This document shows, one piece after another, positions 562-22,313 of a DNA stretch of 32,000 bases. The translations under genes were made by a program, and so were the position numbers. The DNA is taken from assembly GCF_003367075.2 (NCBI RefSeq), contig NZ_CP065936.1, positions 810,001 through 842,000 of the forward strand. Direction: 5' to 3'. Under the pieces are notes generated by a model that was given only the letters and a program-made list of their open reading frames with translations, was not told where the DNA came from and ran no database searches. The first letter of the stretch is position 1. Each line of letters opens with the position of its first letter. The stretch is from Cylindrospermopsis raciborskii Cr2010 (GTDB taxonomy: Bacteria > Cyanobacteriota > Cyanobacteriia > Cyanobacteriales > Nostocaceae).

Positions 562-987
562 TTATAATATATTCAGGTTCCTGTCAGTAACATCCTTGAG
601 AGTGTAACAGCAATTAACTGGTATCTCCATACCTGTTTCAGCGATCGCATCCAAACGAGCTTTTTGGTAAATCCTATTTAAAAACTCGTCCGTCATATAT
701 TTTTTAAGACTCGGACTATCGATTAAATAATCCTCAATATTGCTCCTTTCTCTTTGAACAGTCACCAACCAACTTCGCGATCGCAATTCAGGTTGATAGT
801 CCCACTTGAGTAAGTGATGCAATATTAGTCGCATACTACTTAATAACCGATCTCGTTCTCGTTTCGACAAGTCTCTAATTTCTTCCACTAAGTTTATGAT
901 ATCTAGCTTATCAAAATGCCCGTTAGCAATTAGATCAGCCATCTTTTCTGACCAGAGAGCAAAATCTTGTTCATACAAGGTTGTCAT
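562..987 (-). CDS. DUF29 family protein
   Basis: 141 aa. 'LYEQDFALWSEKMADLI...FDKLDIINLVEEIRDLSKRERDRL.S....ILHHLLKW.YQP' is the typical DUF29 pattern. It is paralogous to 13545..14012 and to the fragment at 3688..3975. Confidence 0.85.
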   Translation of the reverse strand: MTTLYEQDFALWSEKMADLIANGHFDKLDIINLVEEIRDLSKRERDRLLSSMRLILHHLLKWDYQPELRSRSWLVTVQRERSNIEDYLIDSPSLKKYMTDEFLNRIYQKARLDAIAETGMEIPVNCCYTLKDVTDRNLNIL

Positions 988-3687: not shown

Positions 3688-3975
3688 ATGACAAGTCTTT
3701 ATGAAAAAGATTTCTGCCAATGGGTTGAGCAGACTACCCATTGTCCCGTTAATGGTGATTTTGCAGCAATTGATGTTGAGCATTTAGTTGAGGAATTAAA
3801 GGATCTGGGTAACTCCATTAAGCACTCTTTAGAGAGTAACTTAACTATCTTGCTAGCCCATCTACTAAAGCTGATGGTTCAGTCTGATGCACCCCCTAGT
3901 ATGAAGAACAATTGGTATAATTCCGTCAAAGAGTTGCAAAACTCCTACACAAGAATCCTTGAGAATTATTATTGA
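3688..3975 (+). pseudogene. DUF29 family gene, 3'-truncated (95 aa versus about 140-155 aa in the paralogues)
   Basis: 'LYEKDFCQWVEQT...IDVEHLVEELKDLGNS.KHSLESNLTILLAHLLKL' aligns with the DUF29 protein at 13545..14012. It ends early, where it overlaps the convergent TetR gene end by 7 nt. Confidence 0.6.
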
Positions 3976-4595
3976 ATTGTGGATTCCTTCACCAAAACTC
4001 CATTTAAGAATATATCTGCTAAACCTTCGGCCATTTGTTGCATTTCCTGGGGAGATGCATTTGGTTCAATTAGAGTGTGATCAGAAAAACCTGCGATCGC
4101 GAACATTCCTAAAAATACTTTAGCAACCAATTTAGCATCCATTTGGCGATAGATACCCCTATCCATGGCGGTTTGGAAAAATGCTTCTGCAACACTGGTC
4201 ATTTTATCAATCACCTCAGTTTGGATGCGATTCTGCAAATCTGGATGAAACTGCACCTCCATGAAACAAACTCGCATCAAATCAACATTCTTTTGCATGT
4301 TCCACATTCTGCGACGCATAACCTGAGCTATGGCTTTATAACTACCCATTTCACTCAATTCTGTCAGTAGGTCCGTGAGAATTTCTACCCAACCATTGGT
4401 TGCTACCTCTACCAGAATTGCCTTTTTATTGGCAAAATGACGAAAGAGTGTACCCTCAGCAACTCCTGCAGCGTGGGCTAAATCACGGGTAGTAGTGCTA
4501 TCAAATCCCCTGGAAGCAAATAAACGCAATGCTGCTATAACAATGCGGCTACGGGTTTGAGCTTCTGAAGGGGAGGAATAATGAAAAACTGGCAT
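3969..4595 (-). CDS. TetR/AcrR family transcriptional regulator
   Basis: HTH region 'IVIAALRLFASRGFDSTTTRDLAHAAGVAEGTLFRHFANKKAIL'. I chose the start at ATG 4595 (MPVFHY...); the ORF extends to 4640. Divergent from the M16 peptidase pair. Confidence 0.85.
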   Translation of the reverse strand: MPVFHYSSPSEAQTRSRIVIAALRLFASRGFDSTTTRDLAHAAGVAEGTLFRHFANKKAILVEVATNGWVEILTDLLTELSEMGSYKAIAQVMRRRMWNMQKNVDLMRVCFMEVQFHPDLQNRIQTEVIDKMTSVAEAFFQTAMDRGIYRQMDAKLVAKVFLGMFAIAGFSDHTLIEPNASPQEMQQMAEGLADIFLNGVLVKESTIQ

Positions 4596-4748
4596 AGTAG
4601 TTATTCGGTGTGTGTTAGGGAACACGAATTTTATCTGCATTGTCTAACATGAAAGTTAGGAAGTACGGAAAGCTTAATAGAAGATTAATGCTTTGTTTGC
4701 TATCTGACCGGAATTTTAAAGAATTGTAAATTTAGTTGGATTTTTGCT

Positions 4749-6296
4749 ATGACCCATTGGATTTTTACTTGTATGAGGCGTTTTCTGGTAATAACCCTAG
4801 CATTTTTCTTATTTTGTGGTAATTTTCCCATTCAAACAGCGATCGCCCTACAAGGTAATCAAAGTTCGATTAAGCCCTATTTAGACCGAGTTGTTAAGCA
4901 ACTAACAGAGTTCACTTTAGATAATGGTTTAAAGTTTATTGTCTTGGAAAGACATCAAGCACCCGTGGTTTCTTTTCTGACTTATGCAAATGTTGGGGGG
5001 ATAGATGAACCAGATGGACAAACAGGAGTAGCTCATTTTTTGGAACACTTAGCTTTTAAGGGAACTAAGCGTATTGGTACAACAAACTACAAAGAGGAGA
5101 AGCCCTTATTAGATAAATTAGAGCAATTAGATAGTCAAATTAGAGCTGCCAAGAGTGAAAATAGAACGGAAGAGCTAGAAAAGCTAAAAAAAGAGTTCAA
5201 AACCGTAGAAGCTCAAGCTGGGAAATTGGTGAAACAAAATGAAATGGGTCAAATAGTTGAACAAGCTGGAGGTGTGGGTTTAAATGCTAATACTTCTAGT
5301 GAAGCAACCCGTTACTTTTATAGTTTTCCCGCCAATAAATTGGAGCTGTGGATGTCTCTGGAATCAGAAAGATTTTTAGAACCGGTATTCCGAGAATTTT
5401 ATAAAGAAAGGGATGTGATTTTAGAAGAAAGACGAATGCGGGTAGAAAATTCTCCCGTAGGGTTAATGGTTGAAAAATTCACCGATGTTGCTTTTAAAGT
5501 TCACCCTTACCGGAGACCTGTTATTGGTTATGATGAAGATATTCGTAACCTTTCTCCAGCTAATGTGAGGGAGTTTTTTAACAAGTATTATGTTCCCAGT
5601 AATTTAACCATTGCGGTGGTTGGTGATGTTAACCCTAATCAGGTTAAAAGATTGGCCAAAATTTATTTTGGTAGATATCCAGCTAAACCGAAAGCACAAG
5701 CTAAAATTAACCCCGAACCTAAACAAACCAGCACCAGAGAAATTACCGTAGAACTACCCTCACAACCTTGGTACTTGGAGGGCTATCATCGTCCTAGTAT
5801 CACTGACCCCGATAACGCTGTTTACGATATTATCAGCAGTTTACTAAGTAATGGTAGGACTTCACGACTGTATAAATCTTTGATTGAAACCCAAAGAGTG
5901 GCTTTGGTGGCGGAAGGGATTAGTGGTTTTCCAGGAGACAAGTATCCTAATTTAATGTTATTTTATGCTCTGACAGCACCAGGTCATACAGTAGATAAAT
6001 TGGCGATCGCCCTAGGTCAGGAAATTACCAAATTGCAAACCCAGCTCGTATCTGAGAAAGAATTAGAGCGAGTCAAAACACAAGCTAGAGCAGGTTTACT
6101 AAGGAGTTTAGATTCCAATATGGGTATGGCACAGCAACTATTGGAATATGAAGTGAAAACAGGTTCTTGGCGGAATTTATTCAAGCAATTGGATGACATT
6201 ACAAAGGTTACCCCTGCGGATATTCAAAGAGTAGCACAATCAACCTTCACAGCGGAAAATCGCACAATTGGTAAATTACTTTCCCAAAAATCATAG
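4749..6296 (+). CDS. M16 (pitrilysin) family zinc peptidase, catalytic-type subunit, with N-terminal signal/TM
   Basis: 515 aa. Inverted zinc motif HxxEH is present ('GVAHFLEHLAFKGT'). N-terminal hydrophobic segment 'FLVITLAFFLFCG'. Confidence 0.85.
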   Translation: MTHWIFTCMRRFLVITLAFFLFCGNFPIQTAIALQGNQSSIKPYLDRVVKQLTEFTLDNGLKFIVLERHQAPVVSFLTYANVGGIDEPDGQTGVAHFLEHLAFKGTKRIGTTNYKEEKPLLDKLEQLDSQIRAAKSENRTEELEKLKKEFKTVEAQAGKLVKQNEMGQIVEQAGGVGLNANTSSEATRYFYSFPANKLELWMSLESERFLEPVFREFYKERDVILEERRMRVENSPVGLMVEKFTDVAFKVHPYRRPVIGYDEDIRNLSPANVREFFNKYYVPSNLTIAVVGDVNPNQVKRLAKIYFGRYPAKPKAQAKINPEPKQTSTREITVELPSQPWYLEGYHRPSITDPDNAVYDIISSLLSNGRTSRLYKSLIETQRVALVAEGISGFPGDKYPNLMLFYALTAPGHTVDKLAIALGQEITKLQTQLVSEKELERVKTQARAGLLRSLDSNMGMAQQLLEYEVKTGSWRNLFKQLDDITKVTPADIQRVAQSTFTAENRTIGKLLSQKS

Positions 6297-6319: not shown

Positions 6320-7837
6320 ATGGTCAGGAGTAAAAAATTGAAATTTTCACGTAATATTTTCCCCAAGTTGGGTAGAACTTGGCAATTATTTTTCGCGGTA
6401 GTAATTGCCTTAGTATTGACCTTGAATTTCTCAAGGGTAGCAACAGCAGCAGCGAAGCATTATACCGACTTACAATTCAATTCTTTACCGGGAATTAAAC
6501 TGCCAAAGTATGAGCGATTCCAATTAAACAACGGTTTAGTCGTCTATTTAATGGAGGATCATGAATTACCCTTAGTTAGTGGAACAACTCTAATTAAGAC
6601 TGGTAGTCGTTGGGAAGCAGGAGACAAAGTTGGTTTGGGTGACGTTGTAGGTTCACTAATGCGCATTGGAGGAACTAACAAACACTCCCCGGATGAACTA
6701 AATGAAATTTTGGAGCAAAGAGCAGCATCCGTAGAAACTGATATTAATGAAAGCACTGGAACTGCGAGTTTTGAAAGTTTAACTGAAGATTTAGAAACTG
6801 TGTTCGGGTTGTTTGCAGAAGTCTTACGAGAACCAGCTTTTGCTCCAGAAAAGTTGGAATTGATTAAAACTCAAATTAAGGGAAGTATTGCCCGTCGCAA
6901 TGATGATTCTGACAATATTGCCAGTCGGGAGTTTCGCAAATTAATCTATGGTCAAAATAGTCCCTATGCACGCACTATAGAATATGCAACTCTGGATAAA
7001 ATCCAGCGAGAAGATGTGATTAACTTCTATCGGAAATATTTCCATCCCAATAACATAATCCTGGGAATTGTGGGGGATTTTAACCCGAAAAAAATGCGCT
7101 CTCTGATTCAGACTAAACTGGGTGATTGGCAACCTAATCTCAACATTGCTAAAACTCAATTACCACCAGTGCAGCAAGCTAATTTAAGTGGGTTATTCTT
7201 TGTCAATCAACCACAACTGACACAGAGCAGCATTTTGATGGGACATTTGGGGGGAAAATTCAATAGTCCAGATTATGCAGCATTAGATGTGATGAATGGT
7301 GTGCTAAATGGGTTTGGAGGAAGACTATTTAATGAAGTGCGATCGCGCCAAGGTTTAGCCTACTCTGTATATGGTTTATGGAATCCCCGTTTTGATTATC
7401 CGGGTGTGTTTATTGCTGGTGGACAAACTCGTTCTGATGCTACCGTACAGTTTATAAAATCCATTCAATTAGAGATTGAGCGCATTCAAAAGCAACCAGT
7501 AACAGCGAAAGAATTAAGGTATGCTAAGGAGTCCACCCTAAATTCTTTTGTATTCAATTTTCAGGATCCAGGTCAAACCCTGTCACGGTTAATGCGTTAT
7601 GAATATTATGGTTATCCTGCTGACTTTCTGTTTCGCTATCAAAAAGCGGTGACAAAAACCACAGCTGCAGATGTGCAAAGAGTGGCTCAGAAATATCTCA
7701 AACCAGAGAATTTAGTTACTTTAGTCGTAGGAAATCAAAGTGCCATTCAACCACCGTTAACCCAGTTAGCAAGTAAAATTACACCAATAGATATCACCAT
7801 TCCCGGATCTCAAGACACAGGCTCAAAAATCAACTGA
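6320..7837 (+). CDS. M16 family peptidase-like protein lacking the HxxEH motif (non-catalytic-type partner)
   Basis: 505 aa, paralogous in layout to the upstream gene. The equivalent position reads 'GDVVGSLMRIGGTNKHS'. There is a 23-nt gap from the upstream gene, so an operon pair is likely. Confidence 0.8.
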   Translation: MVRSKKLKFSRNIFPKLGRTWQLFFAVVIALVLTLNFSRVATAAAKHYTDLQFNSLPGIKLPKYERFQLNNGLVVYLMEDHELPLVSGTTLIKTGSRWEAGDKVGLGDVVGSLMRIGGTNKHSPDELNEILEQRAASVETDINESTGTASFESLTEDLETVFGLFAEVLREPAFAPEKLELIKTQIKGSIARRNDDSDNIASREFRKLIYGQNSPYARTIEYATLDKIQREDVINFYRKYFHPNNIILGIVGDFNPKKMRSLIQTKLGDWQPNLNIAKTQLPPVQQANLSGLFFVNQPQLTQSSILMGHLGGKFNSPDYAALDVMNGVLNGFGGRLFNEVRSRQGLAYSVYGLWNPRFDYPGVFIAGGQTRSDATVQFIKSIQLEIERIQKQPVTAKELRYAKESTLNSFVFNFQDPGQTLSRLMRYEYYGYPADFLFRYQKAVTKTTAADVQRVAQKYLKPENLVTLVVGNQSAIQPPLTQLASKITPIDITIPGSQDTGSKIN

Positions 7838-8073: not shown

Positions 8074-8310
8074 ATGGACATAAAAATCAGTGATCTATAC
8101 CCTAATGGTGATGGCGACCTTTTGCAAGAAGTTACTCCTGGCGAAATGGTTAATATCCAAGGAGGTGTAAGACGAAGAAGGAGAAATTCCAATTCGGTTG
8201 AGAGTGGTGATATTTCCCAAATTTTAGGACGTGTCAACGACAACCTAGAAAGATGGAGAGTGGAGATTGATGACACACTAGATCAATTGAGAGATTCAGT
8301 CACCTTCTAA
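8074..8310 (+). CDS. Small peptide (78 aa) with a double-glycine type leader ('GEMVNIQGG') and a highly charged core beginning VRRRRRNSNS
   Basis: SD-like GAGGTGA at 8060-8066, 7 nt before the ATG. The leader 'MDIKISDL...DLLQEVTPGEMVNIQGG' fits the bacteriocin-type GG leader pattern (L..L....E(L/M)..I.GG). Confidence 0.55.
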   Translation: MDIKISDLYPNGDGDLLQEVTPGEMVNIQGGVRRRRRNSNSVESGDISQILGRVNDNLERWRVEIDDTLDQLRDSVTF

Positions 8311-8555
8311 CCTTTGAGTTAAGTTTTTACTAATTCTTATTATTCCTCCCTTGGTCAAGGGGGGATTTATTATATATTCAGGTAGCTGTTTTTAAAAACA
8401 GAAGGACATTAAATCATGACTAATGTCCAATCAACACAGTTCAAACCCTTGATTTTTTAAATTTTCTCCCATAAAAATAGGAGTATGGGTTGAGCAAACG
8501 TCAAACGCTCCCATCCCATATTCACCAATAAGAACAAGTATTCTAGGAGGAAATT

Positions 8556-8786
8556 ATGGCAAGTATTAAACTGGATCAGTTACAAACTACTGGTTCTGAA
8601 CTATTTCAAGATTCTGAAAGTTTTCTCAATGATATGAGTGATATCAACTCTATTTCTGTTCATGGAGGATTCGGATCCAATGTGAGTGACATGTCCATAT
8701 TCACCAAATTAGCAGAAGCATTTGTCAATACCTACGGTATTGGTCATATTGCCTATTTGGCTAAGTCCTACAGCAGTGGAGTATAA
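8556..8786 (+). CDS. GG-leader precursor-like peptide, tandem paralogue 1 (76 aa; leader to ...SISVHGG, 38-aa Cys-free core)
   Basis: RBS AGGAGGAAATT immediately before the ATG. The 38-aa leader 'MASIKLDQLQTTGSELFQDSESFLNDMSDINSISVHGG' is near-identical in paralogues 2 and 3. Core: FGSNVSDMSIFTKLAEAFVNTYGIGHIAYLAKSYSSGV. Confidence 0.75.
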   Translation: MASIKLDQLQTTGSELFQDSESFLNDMSDINSISVHGGFGSNVSDMSIFTKLAEAFVNTYGIGHIAYLAKSYSSGV

Positions 8787-8849
8787 AACTAAAACACTGT
8801 TGATTTAGGGAATGTTTATCACTAGCAATCAGTCTTTGAGGAGGAAATT

Positions 8850-9086
8850 ATGGCAAGTATCAAATTGGGTCAATTGCAAACCACTGGTTCTGAACTATTT
8901 CAAGATTCCGAAAGTTTTCTCAATGAAATGAGCGATGTCAATTCTATCTCTGTTTATGGTGGTGGGTCTGATGTTAGTGACATGTACACTCTCACTAAAT
9001 TAGGAGAAGCATTTGTAAATACCTACGGTATTGGTCATATCGCCTATTTAGCTAAGTCTTATAGTGATCATGATTATTATTGGTAA
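8850..9086 (+). CDS. GG-leader precursor-like peptide, tandem paralogue 2 (78 aa; C-terminal tail DHDYYW)
   Basis: RBS GAGGAGGAAATT immediately before the ATG. The leader differs from paralogue 1 at 4 residues. Core: GSDVSDMYTLTKLGEAFVNTYGIGHIAYLAKSYSDHDYYW. Confidence 0.75.
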   Translation: MASIKLGQLQTTGSELFQDSESFLNEMSDVNSISVYGGGSDVSDMYTLTKLGEAFVNTYGIGHIAYLAKSYSDHDYYW

Positions 9087-9163
9087 GAAAATTACCAGAT
9101 CATTTCCTGGTCACTTCTGGTTCACTCATACTAAGTTAATAAAAAATCCTTGAGGAGGAAATT

Positions 9164-9397
9164 ATGGCAAGTATCAAACTGGGTCAATTGCAAACCACCG
9201 GTTCTGAACTATTTCAAGATTCTGAAAGTTTTCTCAATGAAATGAGCGATGTCAATTCTATCTCTGTTTATGGTGGTGGATCTTATGATTTCAGTGATAT
9301 GTCCATATTCACCAAATTAGCAGAAGCATTTGTCAATACCTATGGTATTGGTCATATTGCCTACTTAGCCAAGTCCTACAGCGACTACGACTACTAA
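9164..9397 (+). CDS. GG-leader precursor-like peptide, tandem paralogue 3 (77 aa; C-terminal tail DYDY)
   Basis: RBS GAGGAGGAAATT immediately before the ATG. The leader is amino-acid-identical to paralogue 2. The core centre is nucleotide-identical to paralogue 1 over 43 nt. Confidence 0.75.
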   Translation: MASIKLGQLQTTGSELFQDSESFLNEMSDVNSISVYGGGSYDFSDMSIFTKLAEAFVNTYGIGHIAYLAKSYSDYDY

Positions 9398-9419
9398 TAC
9401 GCTGAAATAATTAGCCAGT

Positions 9420-9469
9420 TTGGCTCTCCTGGAATCAAAGGTAAATTATTAATACCACAGGAGAGCCAA
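9420..9469 (+). promoter_or_regulatory. Long-stem hairpin (12-bp perfect stem TTGGCTCTCCTG/CAGGAGAGCCAA, 26-nt loop) between the tandem peptide genes and the distal genes
   Basis: Read directly. It lies 23 nt after the stop of paralogue 3. It is followed by TAAAAAAGG rather than a U-tract, so it is not a canonical intrinsic terminator on the + strand. Confidence 0.35.
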
Positions 9470-9510
9470 TAAAAAAGGCTCTAGAATACCCTTAATACCT
9501 ATTAAGATCC

Positions 9511-9720
9511 ATGGCTAAAATTATGATCAATGATCTGGAGCCTATTAACTCAGAAACATTCATTAATGATCTGAATAATCAAAATTCTCAAGCTATTTTT
9601 GGTGGTGAAGATCCTTATTTTGATGGACTGATAAATTTTGGCATCAAAACTCTTGAGTTTATGGTTGTTATCACAGCTATTAATGCCATTTCTTTTCTAG
9701 TATATTCCTTTCAAGAATAA
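9511..9720 (+). CDS. Divergent GG-leader peptide (69 aa; leader ...NSQAIFGG, hydrophobic 37-aa Cys-free core)
   Basis: 'MAKIMINDLEPINSETFINDL....AIFGG' follows the same leader pattern as paralogues 1-3 (I.L..L...SE.F...). Core: EDPYFDGLINFGIKTLEFMVVITAINAISFLVYSFQE. The stop is 17 nt before the kinase-like gene. No obvious SD. Confidence 0.5.
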   Translation: MAKIMINDLEPINSETFINDLNNQNSQAIFGGEDPYFDGLINFGIKTLEFMVVITAINAISFLVYSFQE

Positions 9721-9737
9721 CATATCTCCTAAAAATT

Positions 9738-10901
9738 ATGCCATTTGTTTTAAGTTCTGAAAACGTTTTTTCTTACCTGATTTCTCAAAGAATTTGCACT
9801 CAAGAAGAGCAATCAGCAAGCAAGATTGATCTCAAATCTGCTAAAAATTTTAATCTATTACTTACTTTACCCGATAACCGTCAATTATTGGTGAAACAAG
9901 AACGTATTAATCGAGAGGGTAAAACCAGCGGTGAGTTTATAGATGAATGGCAAGTTCATAATTTTTTTCAGACATTTTCAGCAGTAAATCATCTTCGTTC
10001 ATCCCTATCAGAAGCAATACATTTTGATCAGGCAAATTCCATCCTTGTCTTCAACTATCTCAGAGAATATCGGGATATAGGTGAGTTTTATGCCCGAGAA
10101 AATTTATTTCCCATGACAATTGCTCGCTCCCTAGGGGAAATATTGGCATCAATTCATCAGTTGACTTTAGATCGTCCAGAATATGAAAATTTCTTTCAAA
10201 ATTCTCAGATCACCAGAAAACATAAAAATTCTCACGTACATGAGGGAATCCCTAGAATTACACCGGAACTATTTGGTCAACTGACTGCAGATGATTTAAA
10301 ATTCTTTTCCCTGTATCAACGTTATGACAATTTGGGGAAAGCAATTTCCCAATTGGGTCAATCCTATCATGCTTGTTGTTTGACCCATAATGACCTAAAA
10401 CTCAATAATATTCTCCTGTCTTTAAATTGGGAATCTACAATAAGTCAATCATCCGGTAATATCCGGGGGGAAAAAATAATTCGCCTCATTGACTGGGAGC
10501 GTGGTAATTGGGGAGATCCAGCAAGTGATTTAGGTTCCATAATTGCCAGTTATTTACAAATTTGGCTATATAGTATGGTAACCAGTCGAACTATACCAAT
10601 TGAAGAATCACTACGATTAGCAGCTATTCCTTTGCACTTGATACAACCTTCTATAGCAGAACTAGTAGGTGGTTATTTAACTACCTTTCCAGAGATTTTA
10701 GAGCGTCGACCTAATTTTTTGCAATTAGTTGTACAGTTTACTGGCTTTTCATTAATTACCTCCATTCAAGCTAAACTGCAACACGAAAAGACCTTTGGTA
10801 ATTCTGGTATTGCTATTCTTCAGTTAGCCAAAACTCTCTTGTGTCGTCCCCAAACATCCCTCAGCACAATCTTTGGGGAGGATATTAGATTTGAGATCTA
10901 A
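9738..10901 (+). CDS. Protein-kinase-like / APH-fold phosphotransferase (387 aa)
   Basis: Candidate beta3 Lys in 'QLLVKQ' (K53). Catalytic loop 'HNDLKLNN' (aa 217-224, nt 10386-10409) fits HxDxxxxN, and the D-L-K-x-x-N form is typical of Ser/Thr kinases. Metal-binding 'LIDWERG' (D252, nt 10491-10493) resembles the IDxE of APH/MTR-kinase/CotS-type enzymes. Confidence 0.8.
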   Translation: MPFVLSSENVFSYLISQRICTQEEQSASKIDLKSAKNFNLLLTLPDNRQLLVKQERINREGKTSGEFIDEWQVHNFFQTFSAVNHLRSSLSEAIHFDQANSILVFNYLREYRDIGEFYARENLFPMTIARSLGEILASIHQLTLDRPEYENFFQNSQITRKHKNSHVHEGIPRITPELFGQLTADDLKFFSLYQRYDNLGKAISQLGQSYHACCLTHNDLKLNNILLSLNWESTISQSSGNIRGEKIIRLIDWERGNWGDPASDLGSIIASYLQIWLYSMVTSRTIPIEESLRLAAIPLHLIQPSIAELVGGYLTTFPEILERRPNFLQLVVQFTGFSLITSIQAKLQHEKTFGNSGIAILQLAKTLLCRPQTSLSTIFGEDIRFEI

Positions 10902-10962: not shown

Positions 10963-12060
10963 ATGCAATTATTAAATTCTCGCAAATTTCAGCTGACACA
11001 ACTCCCTGAGCAGTTGCAAGATTCTCTGCAGGATATGGTTAGTCACATTCAAATTGAGTCTTATTACTCTATTAAGCATACACGCTACAAGCATTCAATT
11101 CTACCAGATTCTGTAACTTCTCAGTTTGAAAGGCTACCTTTAGAGATACAGCAGCAACATTTAAAATTACAATTGCGTAACTTTATATATAACAACTATT
11201 ATAACGTTAACATAAAGAATAAATCAAGTACAGATGAGAACATAGACAGCAGTAAATTGAACAAACAGCTTGAAAACAATAGTTTGTTTGGGGTAGATCT
11301 AGAATTTTATGATCGTCTACACAATGGGAACAAAGGTAAAGGTTACTGGAGTCATAATTGGGAGATTGTCAAGGAAGAGACAGATGGTACCTTAGCAGTC
11401 TATAAGAACGGCTTAACACTGCACATTGACCCCAATTTACATTTATCACCAACAACTCAAGGTCTCAGTGCTGGAAAGACTATATCCGTTAAAATGCCGA
11501 AGAATTTGGTACAAAACGGCTTTTATATGGCCGTAGCTAATGCGGGAACTCAAAACAATCAGGAGATTACCCGCATCTACTTTAATATAGCAGCTGAAGG
11601 AGCAGCAACAGTGATGGAAAGTGTAACGGAATATCTTAATGATCTTGACATTTCATTCTCTTTTAAAGCATTATATAATCCCGGTGATTATCAACGTTAC
11701 GATTCAGCTGTTCTCTATTTTAATAAAAGTCAACATCAGATAGTCTGGCCTGTTTTGCAAAAAGTCTATGCAGAAAATGAATTATACTTTCAGCAACAGG
11801 TTCCCATGTTCACTAAAATACTAGCACCTGGGTTAGGCTGTGCGGAAGAACCAGAGCAAAAATTTGGCGACCAAGAGAGCTTCGGTACTCACCGCTGTCA
11901 AATTATTGCTAATGGATTAATTGAAGCCTGGCTAGCGGGTGATCATACTCCAGAGTACCGCATAAGTGCTATCTTTAAACAGTTTGCATTACAAAACATC
12001 CAGTTACAACATCCTTATCTCAATCCCCATTCTCAGGATATTTATACTCCCTTTTTTTAA
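10963..12060 (+). CDS. HopA1-effector-like protein; putative phospho-Ser/Thr lyase partner of the upstream kinase
   Basis: 366 aa from ATG 10963 (SD-like AGGTGA at 10950-10955); the ORF opens at TTG 10933. The central block 'GFYMAVANAG....ITRIYFNIAAEGAATVMESVTEYLNDLDISFSFKALYNPGDYQRYDSAVLYFNK' matches my recollection of the HopA1 family core (R.Y.N...F.FK....Y.R.D..V.Y). I could not run an HMM search. Confidence 0.5.
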   Translation: MQLLNSRKFQLTQLPEQLQDSLQDMVSHIQIESYYSIKHTRYKHSILPDSVTSQFERLPLEIQQQHLKLQLRNFIYNNYYNVNIKNKSSTDENIDSSKLNKQLENNSLFGVDLEFYDRLHNGNKGKGYWSHNWEIVKEETDGTLAVYKNGLTLHIDPNLHLSPTTQGLSAGKTISVKMPKNLVQNGFYMAVANAGTQNNQEITRIYFNIAAEGAATVMESVTEYLNDLDISFSFKALYNPGDYQRYDSAVLYFNKSQHQIVWPVLQKVYAENELYFQQQVPMFTKILAPGLGCAEEPEQKFGDQESFGTHRCQIIANGLIEAWLAGDHTPEYRISAIFKQFALQNIQLQHPYLNPHSQDIYTPFF

Positions 12061-12204
12061 AAAGGGTTTAATTTCAACTGTGAGGATTATTTCCTCACTA
12101 TCCCAAAACATCACTACCAGTCTCATGTCCAATTTTATGGGGTGTTTAACACGAAACTTTAGTAACTGACAAAATAACTATTTAATGACTGATAGAGGTG
12201 ATAA

Positions 12205-12462
12205 ATGATTCCAGAGAATTTTGAACAAAAGCAAGAGTCAGAAAAGATAGATATAACATTCCAGCATATACAAATTCAGCAAATTATTCATGCCATTATT
12301 GCAGGCAAATATGCTTGGGCCTGTATTTTATTTATTTACTTTTCAGGAAGGGATCCCCTCCACTATATACCTCAAGAAATTTACACTAAGTTAGTGAGAG
12401 ATAATTTTCCACCAGTATCAACTAATCGGGAGTTGACAACTGACAAAAAATTGAGTAGTTAG
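12205..12462 (+). CDS. HetP-family-like small protein (85 aa)
   Basis: SD-like AGAGGTGA sits 3 nt before the ATG. 'IIHAIIAGKYAWACILFIYFSGRDPLHYIPQEIYTKLVRDN' resembles the conserved N-terminal core of HetP and its short paralogues in Anabaena PCC 7120, which I recall as A.LAGKYSWAC.L..RFAGYNP.HYIP.R.YNRL. Confidence 0.55.
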   Translation: MIPENFEQKQESEKIDITFQHIQIQQIIHAIIAGKYAWACILFIYFSGRDPLHYIPQEIYTKLVRDNFPPVSTNRELTTDKKLSS

Positions 12463-12518: not shown

Positions 12519-12886
12519 AAGCTGAACAAAAACGTCTATCTCAAGAACATCAACAGGAATATGAACAACGCCAAAGAAAACATGAAGAAGAGATGGACCA
12601 ATTCCGTATATTTATGGAAGAAACCAGGAAGATGGTGGCTGAAACTAATAAAAATATGGGATCCATCACTAGCAGATGGGGTGAGTTTGTAGAAAACTTA
12701 GTTAGACCTGCTGCGGCGCGATTATTTAAGGAGCAGGGTATTAATGTACACTATACCTCTCTTCAGGTAAAAGCTCATGATTATAAAGGTTCCATAGAAA
12801 TTGATATTTGGGCAGAAAATGATGGTGAAATTGTAGCCATTGAAGTTAAGTCTCACTTACCTCTGGTATCCCAAACTAGACACTAA
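12519..12886 (+). pseudogene. Fragment 1 of a DUF3782-like (coiled-coil plus PD-(D/E)XK-like) gene, truncated at both ends
   Basis: Homology to fragment 3 begins at about 12519, just after HIP1 12499-12506 ('AEQKRLSQEHQQEYEQRQRKHEEEMDQFRIFMEET'). It continues into '...GEFVENLVRPAAARLFKEQGINVHY...IEIDIWAENDGEIVAIEVKSHL' and stops early at 12886, 8 nt before HIP1 12895-12902. Confidence 0.6.
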
Positions 12887-13301: not shown

Positions 13302-13532
13302 ATGAGCAACGAAACAATTACGCTCGCAGATATTTTTGCCTTATTCAAAGAAAGCGAAAGGCAAAGAGAAGCTGAACAAGCTGAACAAAAACGTCTATCT
13401 CAAGAACGTCAACAGGAATATGAACAGCGTCAACGGGAATACGAGGAACGCCAAAGAAAACATGAAGAAGATATGGAGCAATTCCGTATATCTATGGAAG
13501 AAACAGCGATCGCCTTAATGTCTAGTGATTAG
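13302..13532 (+). pseudogene. Fragment 3 of the same gene family: intact start, coiled-coil N-terminus only (76 aa)
   Basis: 'MSNETITLADIFALFKESERQREAEQAEQKRLSQERQQEYEQRQREYEERQRKHEEDMEQFRISMEET'. It then diverges at HIP1 13508-13515 and stops. The nuclease-like domain seen in fragment 1 is absent. Confidence 0.6.
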
Positions 13533-13544
13533 GACTTGGATAAT

Positions 13545-14012
13545 ATGTATAATAAACTGTATGATAGCGATTTAGAATTATGGATCGAACAAACAATTCA
13601 ACAATTGCAAAATCGTGAGTTTGTATCTTTGGATGTTGAGCATTTAATTCAGGAGTTAGTAGATTTGGGTAAGTCCCAGAAGAATACACTTAAAAGTAAT
13701 CTTAAGATATTATTAGCTCACTTACTCAAACTAAAAATTCAGCATGATGCACCTGATATGATGAAAACAAGTTGGTACGGTTCAGTTGTAGAACATCGTC
13801 AACGGGTACTGGATAATTTAGCAGATACTCCATCTCTAAAAGGTTTTCTCGTGGAAGCAGTGGAAAAAGCCTATCCTGATGGACGAAAATTGGCAATTAA
13901 GGAGAGCAAATTTGCTAAATTGGGAGTCCGTCTACCAGAAGAGAGTGAGTATCCCATAATTTGTCCTTTTCAAATAGAGGAAATTCTGGATGAGGACTTT
14001 TATGGAGACTAA
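13545..14012 (+). CDS. DUF29 family protein
   Basis: 155 aa from ATG 13545 ('MYNKLYDSDLELWIEQT...LDVEHLIQELVDLGKSQKNTLKSNLKILLAHLLKL'). The ORF opens at TTG 13536. Confidence 0.85.
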   Translation: MYNKLYDSDLELWIEQTIQQLQNREFVSLDVEHLIQELVDLGKSQKNTLKSNLKILLAHLLKLKIQHDAPDMMKTSWYGSVVEHRQRVLDNLADTPSLKGFLVEAVEKAYPDGRKLAIKESKFAKLGVRLPEESEYPIICPFQIEEILDEDFYGD

Positions 14013-20071: not shown

Positions 20072-20249
20072 GGAGGATAGATTTAAAAACTATTTACAGG
20101 AACATTATAGAGCTTTAACAACTTGTTAACAGATAGACCTGATTTTTGGTTTATGATATTGTATAACTAGAAAGAAGTAAGTAGGGGGCACAATTGTTTG
20201 TAAGATAGATTCTGTTGATTTTTATGCTGTGAAATTTAATTTCAACGTC

Positions 20250-22313
20250 ATGATATGTTGTTTAAATCCCGATTGTCAAAATCCTCAAAATCCCCATGGT
20301 AGCAAGTTTTGTCAAAGTTGTGACACTCCTTTAGTACCACTGTTAAGAAATCGTTTTCGTATTATTCGTGTGCTTTCAGATGAAGGAGGATTTGGCAGAA
20401 CATATCTAGCAGAAGATACAGATAAATTAAATGATAATTGTGTGGTCAAACAATTAGCACCTAAGTTTCAGGGTACTTGGGCACAAAAAAAAGCAATGGA
20501 GTTATTCAGTCAAGAAGCAAAGAGACTGCAAGAATTAGGAGAGCATCCACAAATTCCCACCTTATTGGCTTATTTTGAGCAAGATAAATGTTTATATTTA
20601 GTACAGCAATTTATAGATGGCAATAACCTATTACAGGAGTTACAATTAAGAAAGCACTATAAAGACAGTGATATTCAATCTTTACTACTGGATTTATTGC
20701 CTATTCTTAAATTTCTTCATAGTCGGGGAATAATTCATCGAGATATCAAACCAGAGAATATTATCCGACGTAAAAGGGATGGAAGATTAATCTTAATTGA
20801 CTTTGGTTCTGCCAAACAATTAACAGTTGCAGTTCAAAAAAAATATGGTACTTCTATTGGATCCCATGGTTATTCTGCTATAGAGCAAATTAGAGATGGC
20901 AAAGCCTATCCAGCTAGTGATTTATTTAGCTTGGGTGCTACTTGTTTTCATCTCTTAACTGGTCTATCTCCCTTTCAATTGTGGATAGAACATGGTTATA
21001 GTTGGGTCAAGAATTGGCAAGATTGCCTTAACAATTCTAGGAGTGCTGAGCTAATTATTATTTTAGATAAGCTATTACAACTAGATCTGAAAAATCGCTA
21101 TCAATCTGCTGATGAAGTTATAAAAGACCTTAGTAAAAAGAATGTTTATGGTTCAAAAAAATCTGGCATATACCTTAAAAAGGGTAAACATGAAAAACAT
21201 AAACATACTATTTTGCGAAATATATTTTTGATTTTGGTAACAATTTCGGTTGTGGGGGGATTGGGATATAGGAACTTAGGTCAAATGCAAACGGCAATTT
21301 TCTCTCAATTTAATCCTTTATTAATACCAAGTAATAAATCTTCTACCAGTCCCGAGTATGGGCAAATATCTGGGAGAACTTCCTCTATTAGAACTAACAA
21401 AGTTAGTTTACTCAAAACCATAACACAAGTAGATAAATCCCTAGCAGTGGTGGCTATTACTCCAGATGGTAATACTATTGTCAGTGCGGGTCACAAAGAA
21501 ATTAAATTATGGAATAGCAAAACGGGCAAACAAATTATATCCCTACCAGGACATACACAAAATATCAACGCTCTTGCCATTAGTCCAGATGGAAATAACC
21601 TAGTGAGTGCGGGAGATGATAAAACGATTAAAGTTTGGAATTTACAAACAAAAAAACTTACTTTTAATCTAGTTGGTCATCAAGACTCAATTCAAGCACT
21701 AGCTATTAGTCAAGATAGCAAAATCCTAGTTAGTGCGGGAGATGATAAAACAATTAAAGTTTGGAGTCTATTAACAGGAAAGTTTTTAAAAACTCTCCTA
21801 GGCCATAATTATTGGGTTAGATCTTTAGCTCTTAGTCCCGATGGGTTCACTCTAGCAAGTGGAAGTTTTGATAAAACTATTAAAATATGGAATATTAATC
21901 AAACCAGTGGGCAAAAACCAACTACACTATTAGATACTACTTCCCAAACAGTCACATCTTTAGCTTTTAGTCCGGACACTAGTACACTTGTCAGTACCAG
22001 TCGCGATCGCCAAATTAAGTTTTGGGATATTAAGAATAAGGAGATAATTTTTGCCAGTAAAAAACAAAATGTTACATCTGTGATTTTCAGTCCCGATGGT
22101 AAAACCCTGATTAGCAAAGCCAAAAGTTGCCCAGATTGTTCTGAGAAAATTTCCTCTGTGATTAAATTATGGGATGTAAGCACAAAGGAAGAAATTTACG
22201 CTCTACCAGGAAACACCAAAATTGTTACATCCTTAGTTTTAAGTGCTGATGGTAAAACTTTAGTGGGTGGAACAGAAGATAATAAGATTAATATTTGGGA
22301 GATTTCTCCCTAA
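20250..22313 (+). CDS. Ser/Thr protein kinase with N-terminal zinc-ribbon, central TM segment and C-terminal WD40 repeats
   Basis: 'CLNPDCQNPQNPHGSKFCQSCDTPL', 'HRDIKPENII', 'IDFGSAK', TM segment 'IFLILVTISVVGGLG', and repeated 'GH...I.ALAISPDG..LVSAGDDKTIKVWNL' units. I chose the start at ATG 20250. Confidence 0.85.
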   Translation: MICCLNPDCQNPQNPHGSKFCQSCDTPLVPLLRNRFRIIRVLSDEGGFGRTYLAEDTDKLNDNCVVKQLAPKFQGTWAQKKAMELFSQEAKRLQELGEHPQIPTLLAYFEQDKCLYLVQQFIDGNNLLQELQLRKHYKDSDIQSLLLDLLPILKFLHSRGIIHRDIKPENIIRRKRDGRLILIDFGSAKQLTVAVQKKYGTSIGSHGYSAIEQIRDGKAYPASDLFSLGATCFHLLTGLSPFQLWIEHGYSWVKNWQDCLNNSRSAELIIILDKLLQLDLKNRYQSADEVIKDLSKKNVYGSKKSGIYLKKGKHEKHKHTILRNIFLILVTISVVGGLGYRNLGQMQTAIFSQFNPLLIPSNKSSTSPEYGQISGRTSSIRTNKVSLLKTITQVDKSLAVVAITPDGNTIVSAGHKEIKLWNSKTGKQIISLPGHTQNINALAISPDGNNLVSAGDDKTIKVWNLQTKKLTFNLVGHQDSIQALAISQDSKILVSAGDDKTIKVWSLLTGKFLKTLLGHNYWVRSLALSPDGFTLASGSFDKTIKIWNINQTSGQKPTTLLDTTSQTVTSLAFSPDTSTLVSTSRDRQIKFWDIKNKEIIFASKKQNVTSVIFSPDGKTLISKAKSCPDCSEKISSVIKLWDVSTKEEIYALPGNTKIVTSLVLSADGKTLVGGTEDNKINIWEISP

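Follow-up and report, generated by a model that had tools for sequence, protein, structure and literature searches.

A shortened HetP-family gene at the 3' end of a GG-leader peptide cluster in Cylindrospermopsis raciborskii

Introduction

In Anabaena, hetP (alr2818) follows hetC, the gene of an ATP-binding cassette (ABC) exporter with a C39-peptidase domain (PMC4133259, PMC10986499), and its product promotes commitment to heterocyst development. HetP is reported to bind DNA non-specifically and to assist the sigma factor HetZ in reaching its promoters, being required for the chromatin immunoprecipitation peaks and promoter occupancy of HetZ (PMC13342950). A hetC peptidase mutant is compensated by hetP overexpression, and HetP, for which one membrane segment (residues ~29-44) is predicted by TMHMM-type tools, was partly membrane-associated at the heterocyst poles as HetP-GFP (PMC4133259). 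Short HetP paralogues of the Asl1930 type delay commitment. Asl1930 is reported to interact with HetR and other HetP homologues, and deletion of asl1930, as of two further HetP homologues, advances commitment (PMC9045159, citing Videau 2016). Here, a member of this family is described from Cylindrospermopsis raciborskii Cr2010, encoded by an open reading frame (ORF) at 12205-12462 of a 32,000-nucleotide stretch of contig NZ_CP065936.1 (positions 810,001 to 842,000; hereafter the window), where it lies downstream of a cluster of GG-leader peptide genes and their putative modifying enzymes.

HetP-like proteins were found by Wang, Fewer and Sivonen in 2011 to be often located beside cyanobacterial bacteriocin clusters, with a heavy skew to group II (PMC3140520). 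The same study described the motif KIxDLxYLE-x10-GG and proposed HetP proteins as precursors. Its Table S3 places Ava_4380 (93 amino acids, aa) 2.9 kb 3' of the last precursor in A. variabilis, together with Ava_4376/4377, and lists asl1930 as the HetP member of the PCC 7120 group II cluster with asl1933/asl1934. The locus tags of the two genomes are collinear, as the Ava number and the Anabaena number add up to 6310 for each pair. These clusters were later classified as HopA1 "Family 1A", comprising 570 peptides in 183 clusters from cyanobacteria only, C. raciborskii included (Eyles et al. 2021, PMC8153245). Paired kinase and HopA1 proteins are known from thioamitides and class V lanthipeptides, where together they dehydrate Ser/Thr (PMC8153245, PMC9486802). 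On the side of hetC, a 2024 study reported no GG-leader gene nearby, and the substrate of HetC is still sought (PMC10986499).

Identity of the HetP-like protein

The ORF is located on the forward strand, starts with ATG and encodes an 85-aa protein including the block ...AIIAGKYAWACILFIYFSGRDPLHYIPQEIYTKL..., which the initial annotation had recognized as the conserved core of HetP. A Shine-Dalgarno-like GAGGTGA ends 4 nt ahead of the start codon. The protein matched the NCBIfam profile NF037966 (HetP_family) with 81.4 bits (cutoff 45, E 2.6e-23), with residues 8-67 covering profile positions 4-63 of 63, and BLASTP against Alr2818 gave 47% identity over the 45-aa core (E 6e-19), using a query sequence transcribed from Fig. 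S1 of Wang 2011 in which one residue is uncertain. The Pfam-A scan gave no match; the precomputed annotation in the protein database is PF28069 HetP. An exhaustive phmmer search returned 275 family representatives at E<=1e-3, and an identical protein (100%) is on record from C. raciborskii S07 (CEP10_12475, on 42 contigs).

The conserved core of the family follows the pattern A-I-x-x-G-K-Y-S-W-A-C ... N-P-L-x-Y-I-P-Y-R-T-Y-x-R-L. All ten invariant core residues (A30, I31, G34, Y36, W38, A39, C40, L42, P51, and P56) occur in the window protein and are shared with Alr2818, the set of columns having been defined on an alignment that includes the window protein. AlphaFold (AF2, 46-sequence alignment) placed three helices at residues 21-32, 36-46, and 57-67, with a predicted local distance difference test score (pLDDT) >90 over residues 21-67, so that the ~47-residue core is predicted to form a compact three-helix domain.

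Outside the core, the window protein and canonical HetP differ. Alr2818 has 159 aa with a linker, the motif KIKDLAYLE...IHGG and a 41-aa tail, and its gene follows hetC. The window protein ends at residue 85 without a GG and without the C-terminal extension carrying KIxDLxYLE-x10-GG, and the gene upstream of it encodes HopA1 instead of HetC. Its position is that of the Asl1930 type, directly 3' of a kinase-HopA1 pair on the same strand and with no more than about 100 aa. Like Asl1930 and Ava_4380, it is short, consists of the HetP core only, lacks a GG motif and stands at the 3' end of a GG-peptide/kinase/HopA1 operon, but it has 85 aa compared to 93 and lacks a tail common to other HopA1-linked orthologues. 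The ORF is a real but shortened HetP-family member, and it closes a cluster of genes for peptide modification.

Conservation of the adjacency to HopA1

With a HetP alignment as query, 185,579 species genomes yielded 595 relatives, of which the best 80 loci were analyzed. From the HopA1 side, with 887 homologues of which the named ones are almost all Nostocales, 80 metagenomic loci, the best of ~1,300 HopA1 loci, were inspected together with several named genomes. In 19 loci including the window, from at least 8 genera, HopA1 was followed after 70-345 bp by a HetP-family ORF in the same orientation; this order occurs in Sphaerospermopsis, Anabaena cylindrica, Trichormus azollae, Cronbergia, Desmonostoc, Goleter, and C. 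curvispora. In the loci with the most window-like HetP (Trichormus azollae, a metagenome-assembled genome, Cronbergia, and Desmonostoc), the same GG peptides, kinase, and HopA1 lie directly upstream. Complete loci were found in Sphaerospermopsis kisseleviana and Anabaena cylindrica, where peptides, kinase, HopA1, and the HetP-like gene are followed by convergent genes for a rotamase, HlyD, and a ~1,015-aa cNMP-C39-ABC exporter. Since the upstream flank in Sphaerospermopsis is pheT and not a pair of M16 peptidase genes as in the window, the kinase-HopA1-HetP-like block is kept across contexts. The adjacency is not chance, and because such neighbours recur, the notion that HetP-family genes never stand beside GG-peptide, kinase, or HopA1-like genes does not hold.

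The HopA1-linked HetP-like proteins have 85-105 aa, and the DLxYLE-x10-GG motif occurred in none of the 19. In a neighbour-joining tree of the HetP core, they fell outside the canonical HetP clade and form a separate GG-less subfamily.

Where the metagenomic sequence extends at least 500 bp past HopA1 (70 loci), the HetP-like gene followed in 10 and was absent in 60. All 10 belonged to the 33 loci whose HopA1 is at least 52% identical to that of the window, with none in the 37 loci below 52%. Clusters with a full exporter also lacked it (e.g., L087, L100, L129, and L158), and both the HetP-like gene and the exporter were absent from Nostoc PCC 7107 and one Anabaena strain, where peptides, kinase, and HopA1 are present. 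Conversely, the gene was kept where an exporter is missing, in the window and in L167, and in A. cylindrica UHCC 0172 a separate event left the HetP-like gene in place while deleting peptides, kinase, and the greater part of HopA1. The HetP-like gene is dispensable for the cluster, since it is absent after HopA1 in most of these loci and in Nostoc PCC 7107 and outlives the cluster in UHCC 0172.

Distant kinase/HopA1 clusters (L124 9089-10102, L113 4285-5346, and ~15 other metagenomic loci) carry a ~350-aa aldo/keto reductase after HopA1, which could act on dehydro-amino acids.

HetP-family genes and C39-peptidase exporters

A C39-ABC gene, defined as an ORF aligned across the exporter C39 domain, occurred within 10 kb in 43 of the 80 HetP-family loci, and in 38 it preceded HetP in the same orientation by no more than 4.5 kb. 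The usual gene order was C39-ABC, HlyD, HetP, and rotamase. The C39-ABC/HetP order was also found in taxa without heterocysts, namely Kastovskya, Microseira, Alkalinema, Myxacorys, Lyngbya, Pleurocapsales, and Leptolyngbyales; with Pfam, the exporter and HlyD were confirmed in Kastovskya and the exporter and rotamase in Goleter. The C39-ABC/HlyD linkage in non-heterocystous cyanobacteria points to a function of the HetP family older than heterocysts.

The DLxYLE-x10-GG motif stood at the C-terminus of 28 of the 37 HetP copies located 3' of a C39-ABC gene. Canonical long HetP proteins (loci L004-L078; e.g., L007 9752-10324 and L053 9920-10444) carry KIKDLAYLE-x10-GG followed by a tail of 7-48 aa, with hydrophobic residues at -4, -12, and -15 of the GG as in classical GG leaders, and their gene lies right after that of the cNMP-C39-ABC exporter. 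The motif was noted by Wang 2011, yet the 2024 HetC paper denies a GG-leader gene nearby.

A sister short HetP paralogue of 91-100 aa was found beside trpC without peptide genes nearby. Candidates of this size proved, from their context, to belong to this separate paralogue. In a Nostoc-specific HetP clade without a nearby exporter, short ORF fragments ~1 kb upstream match C39-ABC with 88-163 bits (L006 8154-8927, L030 8644-9084, and L070 7710-8435) and may be remnants of a decayed hetC-like gene.

In Goleter apudmare, ~26 kb of one contig (L053 = L112) carry hetC, hetP, rotamase, a second C39-ABC, HlyD, and rotamase, with HetP-like, HopA1, kinase, peptides, and the M16 pair converging from the other side. 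C39-ABC exporters and HetP-family genes are each present twice here, along with three or four rotamase genes. As hetC-hetP and the peptide cluster are contiguous, the gene order suggests that HetP paralogues arose through local duplication. Contiguity of hetC-hetP with a kinase/HopA1 peptide cluster was also observed in L002 and L005.

Gene context in the window

The features of the window are listed in Table 1.

Table 1. Genes and sequence signals of the window, with the basis on which each was called.
Feature	Position	Strand	Basis or detail
DUF29	562-987		
TetR-family regulator, divergent, travels with the M16 pair	3969-4640	-	Pfam
Two M16 (insulinase-type) peptidase genes, hallmark of "group II" clusters	4749-6296, 6320-7837	+	Pfam
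Distinct GG-leader peptide, 78 aa	8074-8310	+	ORF translation; leader end ...VNIQGG, then VRRRRRNSNS...
Three paralogous GG-leader precursors	8556-8786, 8850-9086, 9164-9397	+	Leader ...SELFQDSESFLN(D/E)MSD(I/V)NSISV(H/Y)GG
Fourth precursor type, 69 aa	9511-9720	+	Leader end ...QAIFGG; homologues at same position in L002, L003, L005, L033
APH-family phosphotransferase, HopA1 partner	9738-10901	+	PF01636, 35 bits
HopA1-family protein, putative phospho-Ser/Thr lyase of kinase/lyase dehydration pair	10963-12060	+	PF17914, 226.5 bits
Weak A/T-rich terminator-like hairpin overlapping HopA1 stop codon	12049-12066	+	Consensus scan, pattern match only
Spacer between HopA1 and HetP-like gene	12061-12204		144 nt gap
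7-bp hairpin GTGAGGA-TTATT-TCCTCAC, 5-nt loop, no U-tract	12080-12098	+	Sequence read
Sigma-70-like match	12146-12175		9/12
HetP-like gene	12205-12462	+	NF037966
HIP1 GCGATCGC site	~12499		
5'-truncated DUF3782 copy, right after HetP-like stop	12520-12886	+	Domain scan
Second partial DUF3782	13302-13532		
DUF29	13536-14012		
694-aa Ser/Thr protein kinase fused to WD40 beta-propeller	20229-22313		

Five small ORFs with GG motifs (8074-9720) lie on the same strand as the HetP-like gene. The first is unlike the other precursors and is kept in T. azollae, Cronbergia, and C. curvispora (99% aa identity), with L002 and L005 among the loci. The cores of the three paralogous precursors contain Ser/Thr, their ratio of nonsynonymous to synonymous substitution rates (dN/dS) is 0-0.08, and a near-identical peptide of C. 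raciborskii CENA303 is part of the RiPPER dataset of Eyles 2021. No Cys was present in any precursor core read. Compared with the class V lanthionine synthetase subunit LxmK, the kinase gave a weak match of 79.5 bits (cutoff 315). The HopA1 homologues use the ATG at 10963, and the mechanically called ORF begins at TTG 10933. Between the peptides and the HetP-like gene, no enzyme gene was found besides the kinase and HopA1, and no cyclase was found. The cluster thus shares an APH-type kinase and a HopA1-type lyase beside precursor genes with the class V lanthipeptide and thioamitide systems (LxmK/LxmX, TsaC/TsaD), but those have no HetP-like component, and because of its Cys-free cores and a kinase far below the LxmK cutoff it is not a lanthipeptide cluster.

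The closer resemblance is to the group II / Family 1A clusters, with which the window shares two M16 peptidases, multiple non-identical GG-leader precursors, the kinase and HopA1, and the HetP-like gene. The TetR regulator was kept in loci L001, L002, L016, L163, and L167, and the M16 pair upstream of the cluster also occurred in L002, L163, L104, L110, L112, L167, and L170. A TetR-M16-M16 block was likewise observed 2-10 kb from a HetP-family gene without a kinase/HopA1 cluster in Microcoleus vaginatus (L016 15965-19967); in Brunnivagina (L076 6750-8288), the same TetR-M16 block lies near a HetP-family gene without kinase/HopA1, with one M16 gene seen, cut at the contig end.

What sets the window apart from group II clusters is the absence of their defining long-type cNMP-C39-ABC exporter together with HlyD and the SurA-type rotamase, as neither these genes nor remnants of them were found in the 32-kb window by tblastn. 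The module is missing from the C. curvispora locus as well and is present in Sphaerospermopsis, A. cylindrica, T. azollae, and Cronbergia. The two DUF3782 copies, one without its 5' end and one without its 3' end, the DUF29 copies and the HIP1 site look like rearrangement scars where other genomes carry rotamase-HlyD-C39-ABC. The echo of the hetC-hetP arrangement seen in the initial annotation is indirect here, as the window has no C39 exporter.

The same annotation had proposed a promoter of its own for the HetP-like gene from the 7-bp hairpin and the 144-nt gap. Both features are exact, and an own promoter is plausible, the sigma-70-like match being the sole candidate in the spacer. Folding of the spacer was no more stable than that of shuffled sequences (z -0.8). 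The hairpin is identical in C. curvispora only, which is uninformative within a genus, and the spacer was unalignable in other genera. The kinase fused to a WD40 beta-propeller further downstream is unrelated to the HetP-like gene.

Discussion

We lean slightly towards the reading that the window protein is a tail-less HetP paralogue of the Asl1930 type and a cytoplasmic modulator of heterocyst commitment. In Cylindrospermopsis, the ORF would be orthologous to the short HetP paralogue that closes the group II / Family 1A operon at its 3' end, the slot taken by Ava_4380 and asl1930, and by analogy with HetP and Asl1930 its product would act inside the cell. Its targets there, through binding or competition, would be canonical HetP or the DNA or protein partners of HetP. 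Its place in a peptide operon would reflect the origin of the HetP family in loci of long-type C39-peptidase ABC exporters, and this location may tie the dosage of the HetP-like protein to operon expression. Its orthology to Asl1930, its activity at the molecular level and a coupling to the peptides, if any, are inferred. In the initial annotation, the peptides themselves were suggested as a developmental or intercellular signal. This is unsupported: the asl1933 precursor belongs to a gene set specific to heterocyst formers, yet it was reported not to be expressed after nitrogen step-down (PMC4365693).

Several points weigh against the Asl1930-type reading. Orthology to Asl1930 draws on the published table and the collinear locus tags. 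In that table (PMC3140520 Table S3), the printed asl1930 coordinates (4,096,955-4,097,236) misfit the locus-tag position near 2.32 Mb by asl1933/asl1934, which is probably a typographical error, and the molecular weights printed in Wang 2011 for Asl1930 and Ava_4380 did not exactly match those of the retrieved proteins. In the window protein, the near-invariant positions S37, N50, T59, and R62 carry A, D, I, and K, respectively, and PYRTY reads PQEIY. The subfamily tail (...KLxFxxIKLSWIxLxxxKHSSN) is missing, the alignment with 11 HopA1-linked orthologues ending at ...TTDKKLSS. With the tail missing and near-invariant positions substituted, the activity of the window protein may be altered or weakened. 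Measured against C. curvispora, its gene has a dN/dS of 0.30, twice that of the adjacent enzymes (HopA1 0.15, kinase 0.16), with four of the five peptides at 0-0.08. A Foldseek search of the predicted structure against the PDB gave nothing significant (best E 4.9), and a profile search of PDB sequences with the family gave no match, so that DNA binding by the window protein finds no structural support here.

The strongest of the alternatives, though still unlikely, is that the HetP-like protein is an accessory of the cluster. It would act as a transcriptional regulator of the peptide/kinase/HopA1 operon, or as a gate or recognition factor for the substrates of the partner C39-ABC exporter, and would then concern peptide production and not heterocysts. 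Its gene is always co-oriented with and near HopA1, in complete loci it separates the biosynthetic genes from the convergent rotamase-HlyD-C39-ABC module, the family is tied to C39-ABC/HlyD in the non-heterocystous Kastovskya, Microseira, Lyngbya, Leptolyngbyales, and Pleurocapsales, and HetP binds DNA (PMC13342950). Against an accessory of this kind stand the many clusters that lack the gene, full-exporter clusters included, its retention where the cluster is deleted or the exporter missing, and a sister short paralogue that lies next to trpC away from peptide genes.

A broader proposal, which we regard as quite unlikely, is that HetP-family proteins are regulators coupled to C39-peptidase ABC exporters, the long forms being cleaved at the GG and the short forms acting as uncleavable antagonists. 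The adjacent HetC-type exporter would cleave long HetP, leaving the N-terminal DNA-binding domain inside and exporting the C-terminal peptide, and through the short GG-less forms encoded in the operon the expression of GG-peptide clusters would tune commitment. If true, this would name the long-sought substrate of HetC.

Returning to the Asl1930-type reading, the loss of the tail raises the question of decay. The ORF could be a decaying remnant, 3'-truncated at a deletion junction and conserved through recent common ancestry only, an explanation we hold to be improbable. The tail is missing, a truncated DUF3782 abuts the stop codon, the exporter module has been lost, near-invariant positions are substituted, and dN/dS exceeds that of the neighbours. 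No frame-shifted remnant of the HetP tail was found 3' of the ORF. The proteins of C. raciborskii (85 aa) and C. curvispora (82 aa) are both ~17 residues short with the same truncation point. Against decay, the reading frame is intact in both species at a synonymous divergence (dS) of 0.25, and dN/dS is well below 1, as under purifying selection. The Shine-Dalgarno sequence is strong, all ten invariant core residues are kept, S37A and N50D are seen in full-length orthologues too (e.g., Sphaerospermopsis), and the protein is cut off where the structured core ends. In the deletion of A. cylindrica UHCC 0172, the tail was replaced from ~codon 83, with the core and ~100 bp of upstream sequence kept. 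Thus two independent deletions, in Cylindrospermopsis and in UHCC 0172, both end at ~codon 80-83 with the core intact, and because they end at the edge of the structured core, this suggests that the HetP-like core is under selection for its own sake.

A role as a small membrane protein that confers immunity to the peptide products or anchors them is very improbable. Small genes beside bacteriocin operons are often immunity genes, and a membrane segment has been predicted in HetP, with HetP-GFP partly membrane-associated (PMC4133259). In the AlphaFold model, however, the hydrophobic stretch forms the central helix of the three-helix bundle; with only 11 residues, this helix resembles one buried in a core more than one crossing a membrane. 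Moreover, HetP is reported to bind DNA, and most clusters in need of immunity lack the HetP-like gene. We give next to no credence to the window protein as a bacteriocin-type precursor undergoing cleavage and export, the role put forward for HetP proteins generally by Wang et al. 2011: the GG motif of long HetP with its hydrophobic residues at -4, -12, and -15 resembles classical GG leaders and the window peptides, and long HetP genes lie 3' of C39-ABC genes, but the sequences contradict this for the short form, as the window protein, which like all 19 HopA1-linked copies has no GG motif, is not a leader-cleavage substrate, ends 18 residues past the core and has no exporter in the window.

The link between the HetP family and GG peptides, put forward in the initial annotation, is real and conserved but not new, as it was published in 2011 with Ava_4380 and asl1930 in the same architecture (PMC3140520). 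With the association published then and the family curated by NCBI, the present finding confirms existing knowledge. The additions are modest: a GG-less HopA1-linked subfamily, independent deletions that spare the core while losing peptide genes or exporter, and a contiguous hetC-hetP/peptide cluster in some genomes. The connection of the HetP family to GG-leader/C39-exporter loci is thus real and old, and it extends to cyanobacteria without heterocysts. It bears on what HetC exports and on how HetP paralogues determine when heterocyst development becomes irreversible.

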